Of a stretch of DNA of 30,381 nt, positions 4,703 to 23,690 are shown piece after piece; position 1 is the first letter of the stretch; the number at the start of each line of letters is the position of its first letter. Position numbers and translations under genes: made by a program. The stretch lies in UHGV virus genome UHGV-0119412. One strand, written 5' to 3'. The stretch is from a virus. The notes under the pieces were generated by a model. It worked only from the letters and a program-made list of their open reading frames with translations. It searched no databases and was not told where the DNA came from.

Positions 4703-5221
4703 TTACAGCCCGATTGCGCGGCGGTGCTGTTCCAGACGGTCGACGCAGTTCACCTTCTCAACCATGTTGACGGTGTCGATTTCGATGACGTCGCTACCAT
4801 CAATCGTGAGGCGGTAATAGGTGCATACGGTCGACAGTTTGGTCGAGGTGTTTTCACCCTGCTTATTCTCGCCGCCGTCGATTTCTTTATGACGGCCACG
4901 CATGACCACCTCGACCGCCACGATTTCGCCAGTGTCGTCACGTTGGTAAGAGCCAGCAAAACGCAACGGCACAGCGTCAGCACCCGGCGCGGCGTACTGC
5001 GCCCACAGCGCCACATCAGGCAGGCCACCAACAGACCATTCGACGGTGAGCGCATCATCGTCGAGACCAAGGTCAATCGCCGCCGCGCCATTCATGCCGC
5101 CGCCGCGATAGTTTTCGAGCTTGCGGGTCAGCTTCGGCAGCGTCACGGATTCAACAACGCCCATGTAGCTAAGGCCGTCATTGAACATGTTCAGATATTT
5201 AAGTTTGCGGGGTAGTGCCAT
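4703..5221 (-). CDS. FII: Tail tube protein (gpFII)
   Basis: 172-aa ORF directly downstream of the sheath gene; P2 FII is 172 aa. Confidence 0.85.
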   Translation of the reverse strand: MALPRKLKYLNMFNDGLSYMGVVESVTLPKLTRKLENYRGGGMNGAAAIDLGLDDDALTVEWSVGGLPDVALWAQYAAPGADAVPLRFAGSYQRDDTGEIVAVEVVMRGRHKEIDGGENKQGENTSTKLSTVCTYYRLTIDGSDVIEIDTVNMVEKVNCVDRLEQHRRAIGL

Positions 5222-19207: not shown

Positions 19208-20254
19208 ATGGGTAAACAAAAATCCCGTAAAGCCAACGCACAAAAGGCCAGCAAACCACAACAACTGATCGCCAGCGCACCGCCAAAAACGACAGCGTTC
19301 ACCTTCGGCGAGCCGGTGCCGGTACTCGATAAGCGCGACATTCTGGATTACGTCGAGTGCATCAGTAACGGCAAATGGTACGAGCCGCCGGTCAGCTTCT
19401 CAGGGCTGGCAAAGAGTCTGCGCTCTGCCGTGCATCACAGCTCGCCAATTTATGTTAAGCGTAACGTGCTCGCGAGCACCTACATTCCGCACCCGTTGTT
19501 ATCCCGTCAGGATTTCAGCCGCTTTGCGCTCGATTATCTGGTGTTCGGTAACGCCTTTCTTGAGCAGCGCCACAGCGTCACCGGCCAGTTAATCAAACTG
19601 CTGGCCTCGCCAGCCAAATACACCCGACGCGGAGTCGACGATTCGATTTTCTGGTTTGTGGAAAACTTCACCCAGCCGCACGAGTTCGCGCCTGATACCG
19701 TGTTTCACCTGCTGGAGCCCGACATTAATCAGGAGATTTACGGCCTGCCCGAATATCTCAGCGCGCTAAATTCCGCCTGGCTGAATGAATCCGCGACGCT
19801 GTTCCGCCGCAAGTATTATCAGAACGGCGCGCACGCGGGTTACATCATGTATGTGACTGACCCGGCGCAGAGCGCGACCGACGTCGAATCGCTGCGCGAG
19901 GCGATGCGCAATTCAAAAGGGCTCGGCAACTTTAAGAACCTGTTTTTCTACGCTCCCGGCGGAAAACCGGACGGCATCAAAATCGTGCCACTGAGCGAGG
20001 TCGCCACAAAGGATGACTTTTTCAACATCAAGAAGGCCAGTGCCGCCGATCTGATGGACGCGCACCGCGTACCGTTCCAGCTCATGGGCGGCAAGCCCGA
20101 GAATATCGGTTCACTCGGTGATGTTGAGAAGGTGGCAAAGGTATTTGTGCGCAACGAGCTGTCGCCGCTACAGGACAGGTTCAGGGAGGTAAATGACTGG
20201 CTCGGCATGGAGGTCATCAGATTCAAAGAGTACACCCTCGACAACCCAGAATAA
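19208..20254 (+). CDS. Q: Portal protein gpQ
   Basis: 348-aa ORF immediately after P (2-nt gap); P2 gpQ is about 344 aa. Confidence 0.9.
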   Translation: MGKQKSRKANAQKASKPQQLIASAPPKTTAFTFGEPVPVLDKRDILDYVECISNGKWYEPPVSFSGLAKSLRSAVHHSSPIYVKRNVLASTYIPHPLLSRQDFSRFALDYLVFGNAFLEQRHSVTGQLIKLLASPAKYTRRGVDDSIFWFVENFTQPHEFAPDTVFHLLEPDINQEIYGLPEYLSALNSAWLNESATLFRRKYYQNGAHAGYIMYVTDPAQSATDVESLREAMRNSKGLGNFKNLFFYAPGGKPDGIKIVPLSEVATKDDFFNIKKASAADLMDAHRVPFQLMGGKPENIGSLGDVEKVAKVFVRNELSPLQDRFREVNDWLGMEVIRFKEYTLDNPE

Positions 20255-20331: not shown

Positions 20332-21336
20332 ATGGGCGCGGAGATTAATATTTTGGAAACTGATTTTAAAATAACCCTCGAAGGTTTCGCTACTGAGCAA
20401 GAAGCAAATAATATCGGTAATTTCACACTAGAAGCTATCCGAGCTTTAACAAAAAATCTCAATCTTGATATCTCCAAATTAAAATGCGTGATTGTTTCCT
20501 ATAACTTCAGTGAAGCTCTTCAAAAGGTAACATCCTCTTACCAACACAAATCCCCTAGTTCGTTTACCAATAGCAAACAGGGCGCAGCCGTCGGGCAGTT
20601 AGTAACAAAAATTGGCAATGATGGGCTATGTGAAGAATATACCCTTGTGCTATCGATTGATTTTTTTGTTGAGCTTTTCAATGATGGTAGCTTCTTAAAA
20701 CTGAAAGAAGAAGGATACCTCGCAGTCATCCATCGCATTCACCATGAATTAGTGCACGTACATGAAAAAAACTTACTAACATGCTTAGCCCAAAACTTTA
20801 CAGTCAACGAGTATGGTAGCGCGCTTCTTATCTCAGCCACGCGTGCATGGTCTGAATATCTCGCTAATTACATGTCTTCGGGGTCTGCCCCTCAAGAAAC
20901 TATCGATTTATTTTTAGAGAATCTTGACACTGTTGTAAATGAAGTATCTGACGAGATTGAAAAACTCATCTGGGGTTATAAGTACGGTAATATTTCTCTG
21001 AATGACATGTATCTCGAAGTAAAAAAACGTATCAGGCTAATCATCAACTCTTATGCTTATGCGATGGGTTATGTCCATTCTCTAAACATCAATATTAAAG
21101 AATACGATCCAAAGCTATCCCTTACACTATCCAACTCAAAGATAAGATATCAATTATCAGAATTAGGCATTGCTTTTCAGAATCTTTATGGGAAGTTTAA
21201 TGACCAGCACATTACAGGTTTTGGTGATTTTCGGGAGATAACAATAATCATTGATGAAATATTCAAGCAGTTTGGGCTTGTTTTAGAGTGTCCCGATTGG
21301 TCTGGCGACGGTGAACTCTACATACATGTAAATTAG
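20332..21336 (+). CDS. Hypothetical cargo protein with HExxH...NE motif (putative zinc-metallopeptidase-like), between portal and cos
   Basis: 334-aa AT-rich ORF. HHELVH at about nt 20740-20757, with NEYGS about 17 residues later, resembles the gluzincin HExxH-x(n)-E pattern. No obvious Shine-Dalgarno before the first ATG. Confidence 0.6.
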   Translation: MGAEINILETDFKITLEGFATEQEANNIGNFTLEAIRALTKNLNLDISKLKCVIVSYNFSEALQKVTSSYQHKSPSSFTNSKQGAAVGQLVTKIGNDGLCEEYTLVLSIDFFVELFNDGSFLKLKEEGYLAVIHRIHHELVHVHEKNLLTCLAQNFTVNEYGSALLISATRAWSEYLANYMSSGSAPQETIDLFLENLDTVVNEVSDEIEKLIWGYKYGNISLNDMYLEVKKRIRLIINSYAYAMGYVHSLNINIKEYDPKLSLTLSNSKIRYQLSELGIAFQNLYGKFNDQHITGFGDFREITIIIDEIFKQFGLVLECPDWSGDGELYIHVN

Positions 21337-21555: not shown

Positions 21556-21574
21556 ATGCTTTCCCCGCCACGCC
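21556..21574. other. cos site (19-nt cohesive-end sequence, 186-type)
   Basis: The plus strand reads ATGCTTTCCCCGCCACGCC, whose reverse complement GGCGTGGCGGGGAAAGCAT matches the 186 cohesive end as I recall it (P2 differs at two positions); it lies in a GC-rich non-coding stretch between Q and the replication region, as expected. Confidence 0.6.
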
Positions 21575-21811: not shown

Positions 21812-22753
21812 ATGCAAGGTGAAGTTGACGAACAGCAACCCAATGAGATTATGTCGGAGTTTGGATACTATCCAGTAGAAGTTAACATTGAGACTGAACA
21901 ATTTTCTTTGCTTACTTTACCTGGTCTCAATGAGAAAGTGGAGCGTGTTAACAATGATAAAAACGTTGTGAAAGGTTGGATATACCCTGGAAACCAAGAT
22001 GTATATAACCTTAATGGTGGCATATCCACAATGCCTTATAGTCACCGTGTATTCAGTATGCCCAAAACGCACACACTAAAATTAAAAAATACATCCTCGT
22101 TAGAAACTCTCAACTTTATTGTGTGGTGCCTTTCTTTTTTCAAGGGAATAAGATTGACAACCACTGACGCTGGTTTTTTAGATGCAACCACTATCAAGCC
22201 CACTAAGTTAACCGACTTTATTCTCGTTGGATGCTCTGAAAAAGAAATCATAGAACTGGCTCTTAATTATATAAATGGCAAACATAAGGATGCGCACTCC
22301 CCCAAAAGAATTGCGGCAGTGGTGCATGCACTATTCTTATCTCAAAACCCACAATACCTTTCTTTTGAAAAATTCCAGTACCTTTACATGGCACTTGATG
22401 GGTGCTTTGCTTTGTCGTGGGCTGAGCATGACAAGGCTCCTGATAAAAAACCGCCAAATCATTACAAGCGATTAAAGTGGATGTGCAAAATTTATGGGTT
22501 ATCAATTCCCACATGGGTGTCAGGTAAAAAAAACATTTCTGGCATCCGCAATGATAATTTTCATGAGGCTATTTTTTTTGGTCAACCGCTTGGTTTCTCA
22601 AGTATTAACAACAGTCAATATGGTAACGATATATTGCTGCAAATGCAGGCACTGGTATGTCGCCTATTAGCGGCAATACTGTCGGTTAATGATTGCAGTT
22701 ATCTCAAATCTTCGGTCAACTCACGAGATTACCATTCATTAAAAATAAATTAA
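21812..22753 (+). CDS. Hypothetical cargo protein with HEPN-like RNxxxH motif (candidate abortive-infection/defence RNase)
   Basis: 313-aa AT-rich ORF with a good Shine-Dalgarno (GGAGAAAGA) and the motif GIRNDNFHEAIFFG (about nt 22546-22563); it sits where P2 carries old/tin, between cos and the replication module. Confidence 0.65.
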   Translation: MQGEVDEQQPNEIMSEFGYYPVEVNIETEQFSLLTLPGLNEKVERVNNDKNVVKGWIYPGNQDVYNLNGGISTMPYSHRVFSMPKTHTLKLKNTSSLETLNFIVWCLSFFKGIRLTTTDAGFLDATTIKPTKLTDFILVGCSEKEIIELALNYINGKHKDAHSPKRIAAVVHALFLSQNPQYLSFEKFQYLYMALDGCFALSWAEHDKAPDKKPPNHYKRLKWMCKIYGLSIPTWVSGKKNISGIRNDNFHEAIFFGQPLGFSSINNSQYGNDILLQMQALVCRLLAAILSVNDCSYLKSSVNSRDYHSLKIN

Positions 22754-22760
22754 TACTAAC

Positions 22761-22823
22761 GCCTCGCGGTGCTCGTTGTTCAATCCCCGCCAGTACTGAA
22801 AGCGAGTTTCAGAACCGGCGGCG
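22761..22823. repeat. Copy 1 of a ~63-nt imperfect direct repeat with an internal short palindrome
   Basis: GCCTCGCGGTGCTCGTTGTTCAATCCCCGCCAGTACTGAAAGCGAGTTTCAG..., similar to the copy at 23167; internal palindrome CTGAAA..TTTCAG. Confidence 0.4.
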
Positions 22824-22827
22824 TTTG

Positions 22828-23037
22828 CTATCGTCGACGTGGTGGTGGTGCGTATTGTTTCGACCTGCTGATGCTATCCAGCTTGCCGTAATTATCCCTG
22901 ACTATTTCGGCACACCCGACCAGCTCTGCGGGTGTCAAATTCTCATTGACCATTATCTGCTGCAAACGATGAACGATGGCCATCAGTTTGATGCTTTTAG
23001 TTTTGTGCTGCGGTATTTCACCTGGTAGTCGATGCAT
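22828..23037 (-). CDS. Small hypothetical protein (69 aa)
   Basis: ATG preceded by GAGGGTG at appropriate spacing; lies between the two direct-repeat copies; no recognisable motif. Confidence 0.4.
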   Translation of the reverse strand: MHRLPGEIPQHKTKSIKLMAIVHRLQQIMVNENLTPAELVGCAEIVRDNYGKLDSISRSKQYAPPPRRR

Positions 23038-23166
23038 ATTATCACCCTCAATGAATTTTAATCAGTGCCGTCAAAACGCCACTATAAAACCATCTCAGGT
23101 CATGCCTCATTAATCATGGGCGTGTCATCAATAGCACATTGAGAAATTTTGAAAGGCAGGACTTAA

Positions 23167-23227
23167 GCCTCGTGGGCTCGTTACTCAACCCCGCCGACGC
23201 AAAAAGCTAGTTTTTGCGCCAGCACGG
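23167..23227. repeat. Copy 2 of the ~63-nt imperfect direct repeat
   Basis: GCCTCGTGGGCTCGTTACTCAACCCCGCCGACGCAAAAAGCTAGTTTTTGCG...; the internal palindrome GCAAAAAGCT/AGTTTTTGC has a different stem sequence from copy 1 at the equivalent place. Confidence 0.4.
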
Positions 23228-23236
23228 TTATTATGT

Positions 23237-23467
23237 TTAACGCCAGCTATCGTCTTCCCAAATCTCTTGTAATATGCTGCCTAATGTTTCTCTGTCCGCC
23301 TCTTTATCGAATCCGATAGCCTCTACACCAGTCATTGACCCTTTCTTAACGTTAACTTTTGTTGCAGGAAAAACGCATTGTACTCGATGTGTTATTTCAT
23401 TCTGAAAAGCATCAATGATCTGTTGCCCTAATTTTTGCTCTTTATCCAACGTGATATTGATTCTCAT
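23237..23467 (-). CDS. DinI-family protein (equivalent to the Tum C-terminal/DinI-like domain)
   Basis: 76-aa ORF MRINITLDKEQ...GSILQEIWEDDSWR closely resembles E. coli DinI as recalled (MRIEVTI...ISEILQETWES...); it lies downstream of a LexA box. Confidence 0.75.
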   Translation of the reverse strand: MRINITLDKEQKLGQQIIDAFQNEITHRVQCVFPATKVNVKKGSMTGVEAIGFDKEADRETLGSILQEIWEDDSWR

Positions 23468-23470
23468 AAT

Positions 23471-23653
23471 CTAATCAGCCTTATAAAAATTATCATCTTC
23501 GGTTTCGTTATTTTCGCTGTTTGCTAGGTCTGCAATGAGAGTGAGCGCGAGCTTTAAGTCTGATGGCTTGCAGTTTGCAATCAGAGATACCTCGGCAATA
23601 AATTGCACACAAGCCCACTTTTGCTGCGTTCGGCTGAAATGTTCGCCAACCAT
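23471..23653 (-). CDS. Small protein, in-frame upstream partner of the DinI-like ORF (possible Tum N-terminal domain)
   Basis: 60-aa ORF with a GGAGG Shine-Dalgarno; separated from the DinI-like ORF by a single in-frame TAG plus one codon; acidic C-terminus. Confidence 0.5.
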   Translation of the reverse strand: MVGEHFSRTQQKWACVQFIAEVSLIANCKPSDLKLALTLIADLANSENNETEDDNFYKAD

Positions 23654-23674: not shown

Positions 23675-23690
23675 CTGTATATTTATACAG
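23675..23690. promoter_or_regulatory. LexA box (SOS operator) CTGTATATTTATACAG overlapping the promoter of the Tum/DinI-like operon
   Basis: Matches the CTGT-N8-ACAG consensus; lies 22-37 nt upstream of the 60-aa ORF start in the gap after gene A; TTGCCA and TATAAA-like hexamers are present on the minus strand. Confidence 0.7.

Follow-up and report, generated by a model that had tools for sequence, protein, structure and literature searches.

The gpA-to-cos region of P2-like phages is among the best-known anti-phage defence hotspots. In P2-like phages, a hotspot lying between gpA and gpQ carries anti-phage defence genes, and its exchange has been speculated to proceed through the cos ends together with a second homologous event (Rousset et al., 2022; PMC9122126). 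In phage 186, an annotated SOS operon is transcribed from p95, with a partial terminator, t95a, after tum and another terminator, t95b, at the operon end. The DNA analysed here, referred to as the window, is the whole 30,381-nt stretch of viral genome UHGV-0119412, in which an initial annotation made from the letters alone had pointed out two imperfect repeats around a small gene. These repeats are two members of one ~73-nt element family found in enterobacterial P2-like and 186-like phages.

The window is an Escherichia coli prophage of the P2/186-like type (Peduoviridae). Strain N56 matches the 4 kb around the repeats at 100% identity, and about 16 further complete genomes do so at 99.5%. 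Separately, strain ET490 (NZ_CP100947.1 1280337-1285661) holds an otherwise identical prophage in which the 4-kb repeat region is split by an ISL3-like ISKox3 transposase. The features of the region are as follows.

21556 to 21574, minus strand: 186-type cos, GGCGTGGCGGGGAAAGCAT, placed by alignment with the phage 186 right end
21812 to 22753, plus strand: ORF313, a convergent cargo gene of 313 aa, the same as ORF313 of P2-EC67
22754 to 22827, minus strand: element copy 1 (terminal), covariance model 84.8 bits, E about 1e-19; hairpin 1 (HP1) 22825-22782, hairpin 2 (HP2) 22775-22763, conserved tail to 22756 (..GCGUUAG)
22828 to 23037, minus strand: orf69, an accessory gene of 69 aa (PHROG 11386), homologue of PSP3 gp37 and Wphi gp92
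23160 to 23231, minus strand: element copy 2 (internal, more diverged), covariance model 66.7 bits, E about 5e-15; HP1 23229-23187, HP2 23180-23169, tail to 23162 (..GCUUAAG)
23237 to 23467, minus strand: DinI-like/TumB-like gene (Pfam DinI, E 1.7e-17; PSP3 tumB and 186 tum annotations)
23471 to 23653, minus strand: TumA-like gene of 60 aa, first gene of the SOS operon (PHROG 1993)
23675 to 23690: near-consensus LexA box, TACTGTATAAATATACAGTA, 22 nt upstream of the tumA-like start codon
23767 to 25989, minus strand: replication gene A, with the element downstream in the same orientation

Read along the minus strand, the order is thus A, LexA box, tumA-like gene, DinI/TumB-like gene, copy 2, orf69 and copy 1, which places the repeats at the A-proximal edge of the gpA-to-gpQ hotspot (PMC9122126). 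The LexA box is the counterpart of the annotated p95/LexA site in phage 186, and the TumA-like gene is 98% identical to the ORF in the tumA position of PSP3-type loci. Because the box lies upstream of the tumA-like gene, as in the annotated p95 operon of 186, both element copies fall within a predicted SOS-induced mRNA. Furthermore, a near-consensus LexA box combined with an SOS antirepressor operon of the 186/PSP3 type makes the prophage probably SOS-inducible.

On the other side of copy 1, ORF313 matches the ORF313 deposited from the P2-EC67 variable locus (AM157369) and belongs to PHROG 5937, and Pfam and PADLOC searches with it gave no match. It is an uncharacterised gene within the gpA-to-cos hotspot and a candidate for defence or exclusion. 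The ORF313 module takes the place of the segment that resembles t95b, from the 3' end of the element to ~130 nt before cos. A second cargo position is present on the Q side of cos, where a 334-aa ORF at 20332-21336 (plus strand) separates cos from the portal gene Q (19208-20254); this ORF falls in PHROG 11743, to which no function is assigned, and has no match in Pfam or PADLOC. A 20-nt inverted repeat (22551-22570 and 23477-23496, 90% complementary, arms 906 nt apart) encloses both element copies, with one arm within the 3' portion of ORF313 and a second where tumA meets tumB; it may be due to chance.

Both window copies match the family model (HP1, linker, HP2 and invariant tail) over its full length, and the covariance model used to score them was built from other phages. 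The two similar stretches first noticed, 22761-22823 and 23167-23227, lie inside the model-defined intervals, both on the minus strand, at a start-to-start distance of 404-405 nt. The initial annotation was correct that they flank a 69-aa minus-strand ORF and follow closely on the stops of two ORFs, the convergent one of 313 aa and the DinI-like one. Their likeness is also above chance, since a conserved 21-nt core pattern matches twice where 0.03 matches are expected, and pairwise alignment of the copies gives 53 identical columns of 88. Palindromes with different stems are indeed present at the equivalent place (CUGAAA/UUUCAG in copy 1, GCAAAAA/UUUUUGC in copy 2), although they had been called short and the hairpin in fact has 15-19 bp. 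Folding against shuffles gives -30.1 kcal/mol (z -3.0) for the minus strand of copy 1 and -32.6 kcal/mol (z -4.5) for that of copy 2, with z of about -1 for the plus strand. Copy 1 is 94% identical to the family consensus and has the stop codon of orf69 2 nt ahead of the base of its HP1. Copy 2 begins 7 nt past the DinI-like/TumB-like stop codon, and its variant is also found behind the same DinI allele at four other loci (L014, L044, L050 and L053).

Searches across genomes established that the element is a multi-phage family; local duplication does not account for it. When viral contigs were scanned for an exact pattern, more than 120 loci with 97 distinct variants emerged, and for most of these loci the search pattern prescribed part of the conserved block. 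In E. coli, 449 of 5426 complete genomes carry the element by BLAST, in one or two places each and nearly always on the chromosome. Scanning one genome per species with the pattern yielded about 11 true instances, of which all those listed by title are Enterobacterales, and the other matches arose by chance in GC-rich genomes. Every element locus examined is a P2/186-like phage or prophage. Carriers include PSP3 (two copies around gp37, as in the window), Wphi, 186 and SEN1, an isolate named P2, Yersinia and Klebsiella phages, and many members of Peduovirus and Eganvirus. At all examined loci the element lies downstream of gene A, 0.5-3.3 kb away and co-oriented with it, and the A proteins concerned are 35-100% identical.

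Canonical P2, P4 and nine further phages that encode gpA, seven of which represent other Peduoviridae genera, gave no match to the covariance model. As canonical P2 lacks it, the element is dispensable, and its absence there and from the other Peduoviridae genera sampled means that any function is accessory. Canonical P2 (NC_001895 27500-33593) is also without a homologue of orf69/orf92, its tin-old module directly adjoining orf91, so that at this point the reference phage is not typical of its genus. At gathering thresholds, none of the 4227 Rfam families matched anywhere in the window, and a permissive threshold gave two chance-level matches (E 4.7 and 8.1). The element is unannotated in 186, PSP3, Wphi and the RefSeq E. 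coli records examined. A full-text literature search with the core sequence had no match, and two papers on the gpA-to-cos hotspot make no mention of the element; the boundary may have been described before.

On the minus strand the layout runs from the stop codon through HP1, the linker GAACAA and HP2 to the tail GCGUUAG. HP1 has 15-19 pairs of variable sequence, an invariant AAC...GUU closure, a 5-nt loop and one conserved mismatch near its base. HP2 has 5 pairs (C-GA-GC/GC-GA-G) and a variable loop of 3-4 nt; tandem G.A/A.G pairs are present in 46 of 54 variants, and in 7-8 variants UC replaces GA and gives a perfect CUCGC/GCGAG stem. An invariant block of ~35 nt lies 3' of HP1. In copy 1 the HP1 loop CUCGC (22802-22806) is exactly complementary to the 3' arm of HP2, GCGAG (22763-22767), as it is in most variants, and the loop changes are mostly C to U, with which wobble pairing to that arm would persist.

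The surmise that selection acts on the hairpin and not on its sequence is strongly borne out, with compensatory changes seen in a comparison of about 80 variants. Counting the structure as a whole, 87.5% of cells are paired, compared with 34-47% when the partners are slid; nine pairs have changed on both sides, none of 500 shuffles reached the observed values, and RNAalifold recovered HP1 unaided. This pairing also has a polarity. Among 66 distinct HP1 variants, 64 fold better on the sense strand, which has the coding polarity of A, tum and orf69 (mean -26.2 kcal/mol for HP1, against -17.4 for the other strand), and this strand accounts for 148 G.U pairs, against 15 on the other. Several positions alternate between G.U, A.U and G.C. 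The 3' arm hardly varies; opposite its G residues, the 5' arm changes between C and U, so that the pairs persist. Better folding of the sense strand, the G.U bias and the C/U drift together indicate that the selected object is a single strand of sense polarity. DNA folding parameters give the same strand asymmetry, and therefore folding alone cannot separate RNA from same-sense ssDNA. HP1 types and alleles of the preceding gene go together.

An open frame of 40 codons or more precedes the element in 57 contexts; its stop codon is 2 nt ahead of the first paired base of HP1 in 31 of them and no more than 17 nt away in 54. The ORF immediately upstream, without exception co-oriented with the element, is of various kinds (orf69/orf92 type, TumB/DinI type, orf97 type or a 66-codon ORF), and such tight spacing after different ORFs favours a role in the transcript. 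In phage 186 (L237) the annotated p95 transcript includes the element (4843-4915), which follows the stop of orf97 and precedes t95b (4937-4964). About one third of contexts have a canonical terminator like t95b 25-45 nt past the element, followed by cos. The t95b-type terminator is itself conserved (ACCGGC...GCCGGUUUUUUU, at the same 186 coordinates).

The initial annotation had offered terminators or attenuators as possible roles. HP1 does supply the GC-rich hairpin of an intrinsic terminator, with its 15-19 bp and sense-strand mean of -26 kcal/mol. However, no U run follows its stem; in essentially all variants GAACAACGAG stands there, and the only two U residues are paired. With no U-tract, and with the 186 element ahead of the annotated t95b, a canonical terminator is not supported; a part in attenuation or at the mRNA end would be plausible.

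How strongly the element is conserved was assessed in a separate sample. The first loci had been fetched by a pattern that prescribes part of the block, so 80 loci were re-fetched through the orf69 protein, and block conservation refers to this orf69-anchored sample only. The element directly follows orf69 in 74 of the 80, and in 31 a second copy lies upstream of orf69, as in the window. Mean pairwise nucleotide identity is 0.67 in the 150 nt of upstream coding DNA, 0.83 in the whole element, 0.90 and 0.93 in the two parts of the invariant block, 0.35 in the HP2 loop and 0.27 in the 60 nt downstream. The invariant block is more constrained than the adjoining gene, and conservation stops sharply at the 3' boundary. 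Copy 2 of the window is an example of the internal copies, which have diverged further than the terminal ones.

The proposal that the repeats mark a cassette holds as an evolutionary pattern, seen in the two-copy loci and in two further cases. Locus L008 has the tumB end and the ORF313 cargo as in the window, yet a single element; one 405-nt unit, made up of element, spacer and orf69, is the exact difference between them, and their alignment breaks inside the element. Related prophages can thus differ precisely at the element, and cassette-like indels have their breakpoints there. A one-unit difference of this kind is the expected product of unequal homologous recombination between copies. At L327, genes and elements form an array of orf92, element, an orf97-like gene, element and the next gene. 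Nothing in this pattern points to a dedicated site-specific recombinase.

Taken together, we give roughly even chances to the reading that the element is a cis-acting 3'-UTR or intercistronic RNA module which is also a homology junction for the gain and loss of genes and cargo. It acts single-stranded, most probably as RNA within the message of the SOS (tum) operon or rightward early operon. The sequences establish the family, its structure, the strand asymmetry, the placement by stop codons and the indel breakpoints; that the molecule is RNA and not ssDNA of the same sense is what we infer, as is the biochemical role. Each copy starts a few bases past the stop of an accessory gene with a long and stable HP1, its sequence drifting while its pairing is kept, and continues through a short linker and a 5-bp HP2 (tandem G.A or its Watson-Crick replacement) into the almost invariant tail. 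The module could be a 3' exonuclease barrier, a processing point or a point of partial attenuation, and may thereby set the survival or read-on of the message of the upstream gene, with the invariant block as a candidate recognition site for a host or phage factor. As the same element stands behind several different genes, it forms a portable stretch of homology, and unequal homologous recombination at elements could gain or lose 'gene + element' units and swap the cargo beside cos. Several points weigh against the mRNA module. An exonuclease barrier alone leaves ~35 nearly invariant nucleotides 3' of the hairpin unexplained; the canonical terminator that stands behind the element in 186 (t95b) and in about one third of contexts would seem to leave little need for another protective hairpin; and the strand asymmetry, which persists with DNA folding parameters, also fits ssDNA of the same polarity.

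A primarily recombinational device is an unlikely alternative, and the one that survives best. The element would then be either a homology 'linker' for the exchange of accessory and defence genes or an attC-like site folded from a single strand. The sharp mosaic boundaries at both element ends, the breakpoints of one-unit indels within it and the existence of gene-element arrays all fit such a device, and Nilsson et al. 2004, by its title, reportedly proposes site-specific recombination in this P2 region. The hairpin forms on one strand, with AAC and GUU invariant at its base, and the heptamers GUUGAAC and GUUGAGU fit the integron core GTTRRRY. However, the 5' heptamer does not fit the partner box RYYYAAC, and its pairing ends at AAC. 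Past GUU, where an attC crossover (G|TT) would put the next cassette and thus variable sequence, 26 nt are 90-93% conserved, and the boundary comes after GUUAG. There is no pattern of extrahelical bases and the cargo ends have no target duplications; with attC architecture limited to AAC/GUU and a heptamer like GTTRRRY, the element was not filed as an integron-type site. Moreover, second-order selection for evolvability alone leaves the compensatory and strand-biased evolution of HP1 unexplained, and the tight stop-codon spacing points to a transcript.

It is improbable that the element is a trans-acting RNA or a part of one, whether a small RNA derived from the 3'-UTR or a decoy that pairs with a target or titrates a protein. 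An invariant block of 35 nt does resemble a seed or binding site, and the 186-type order of hairpin, block and U-tailed terminator 25-45 nt further on is a typical small-RNA layout. Against this, the block is still conserved in the approximately two thirds of contexts without that terminator, the window and P4 offer no convincing complementary target, and neither an Rfam family nor an upstream promoter signal was found.

Highly improbable is a hairpin of ssDNA, formed on the strand displaced in gpA-driven rolling-circle replication and serving as an entry point of primosome or primase for the lagging strand. Such a signal agrees with the constant direction of the element with respect to gene A and the ori inside A, with its distance of 0.5-3.3 kb downstream of A and with the strand asymmetry that persists with DNA folding parameters. 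An invariant block beside a hairpin is also typical of ssi or PAS signals, and the element has one. This explanation is weakened because canonical P2 replicates without the element and other Peduoviridae that bear gpA lack it, and a replication role leaves the 2-nt stop-codon spacing unexplained. That the two copies are ordinary Rho-independent terminators, related by happenstance, is barely credible: a stable GC-rich hairpin does directly follow stop codons and copy 2 does occupy the position of the partial terminator t95a of 186, but there is no U-tract, 186 has a separate canonical terminator past the element, a terminator scan found no proper terminator at either copy and flagged just a mis-registered piece of copy 2, and an invariant 3' flank of 35 nt is not normal for terminators.

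Several further candidates were tried and set aside. No tRNA or tmRNA fragment was found in a search, and trans pairing of the invariant block with RNAs of the window or with satellite P4 gave chance-level matches only. A closing stem between 5' AACGCC and 3' GGCGUU was rejected on inspection, as the diverged copies (window copy 2 and PSP3 copy 2) have no compensating changes. A pseudoknot between the HP1 loop CUCGC and the HP2 arm GCGAG fits most variants; it is not supported, since the divergent loops (GUACC, CUAGC and AAUGU) are uncompensated. Similarly, the alternative hairpin GCGGGG/CCCCGC depends on the variable HP2 loop and is therefore not conserved, and the change of that loop between 3 and 4 nt would break any reading frame of a small ORF across the block. 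A pseudo-cos was dismissed, as only 7-8-mers are held in common with the cohesive end. Judged by eye, a sigma-70 promoter, the P2 late-promoter motif TGT-N12-ACA, IHF, Tus/Ter, dif/Xer, DnaA and a CRISPR-repeat mimic do not fit. Finally, the ops/JUMPStart signal of RfaH was rejected because its core, GGCGGTAG, belongs to a 5' leader and the element sits at operon ends. The element tail GGCGUUAG (22756-22763, shared by all family members) agrees with that core in 7 of 8 positions, with a mismatch at the fifth and variable bases next to it; the resemblance is probably coincidence, its chance being about 2-3% in a 73-nt element by rough calculation.

For studies of the hotspot, the element could serve as a precise landmark for the delimitation of cargo. 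It stands on the A-proximal side, is better conserved than the genes around it, occurs in ~8% of complete E. coli genomes and has natural gene-sized indels breaking within it. As such it is a candidate for the second recombination anchor, and also a candidate regulatory RNA in the LexA-controlled antirepressor operon that decides prophage induction. If it is merely a stabilising hairpin, it offers a useful annotation and nothing further. A bolder proposal, which we consider quite unlikely, is a new class of phage cis-regulatory RNA or folded single-strand recombination site, with a 35-nt block read by a factor, that controls both the SOS antirepressor operon and the cassette-wise acquisition of accessory and defence genes beside cos. 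If true, this would be the P2-family counterpart of integron attC and would give the P2 defence hotspot a defined mechanism of exchange.

In kind, the element is a conserved 3'-UTR hairpin or phage module-boundary sequence without an Rfam family, and each of the described systems shares part of its make-up. The 186 terminators t95a and t95b occupy the same positions in the same operon, after tum and at the operon end, but they are canonical hairpin-plus-U terminators whose sequence is unrelated to the element. REP stem-loops are likewise stable hairpins without a U-tract, no more than ~15 nt from a stop codon and between genes of one operon, so that REP-like effects on mRNA decay and relative expression would be expected. 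However, REP sequences are host-wide, with hundreds of dispersed copies and a consensus of their own, whereas the element is found in one or two places per genome, only in P2/186-like prophages, and adds a second hairpin and the 35-nt invariant block. Lambda sib/tI is similarly a phage hairpin downstream of a regulatory gene and near a genome landmark, a likeness by which the hairpin could tie the fate of an mRNA to the origin of the transcript; the element differs in having no sequence similarity to it and in following several different genes, in tandem. With integron attC it shares the order of a gene and then a 3' imperfect palindrome, conservation of structure over sequence, one favoured strand, the AAC/GTT triplets at the stem base and tandem units, and it departs from attC in the lack of R''/L'' box architecture and extrahelical bases and in conservation beyond the would-be crossover. 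The linkers of mosaic phages (modular theory; HK97/HK022-type junctions) are short conserved non-coding sequences at a module switch, and the indel breakpoints that lie in the element correspond to this. Unlike simple linkers, the element has a strand-specific structure maintained by compensatory evolution.
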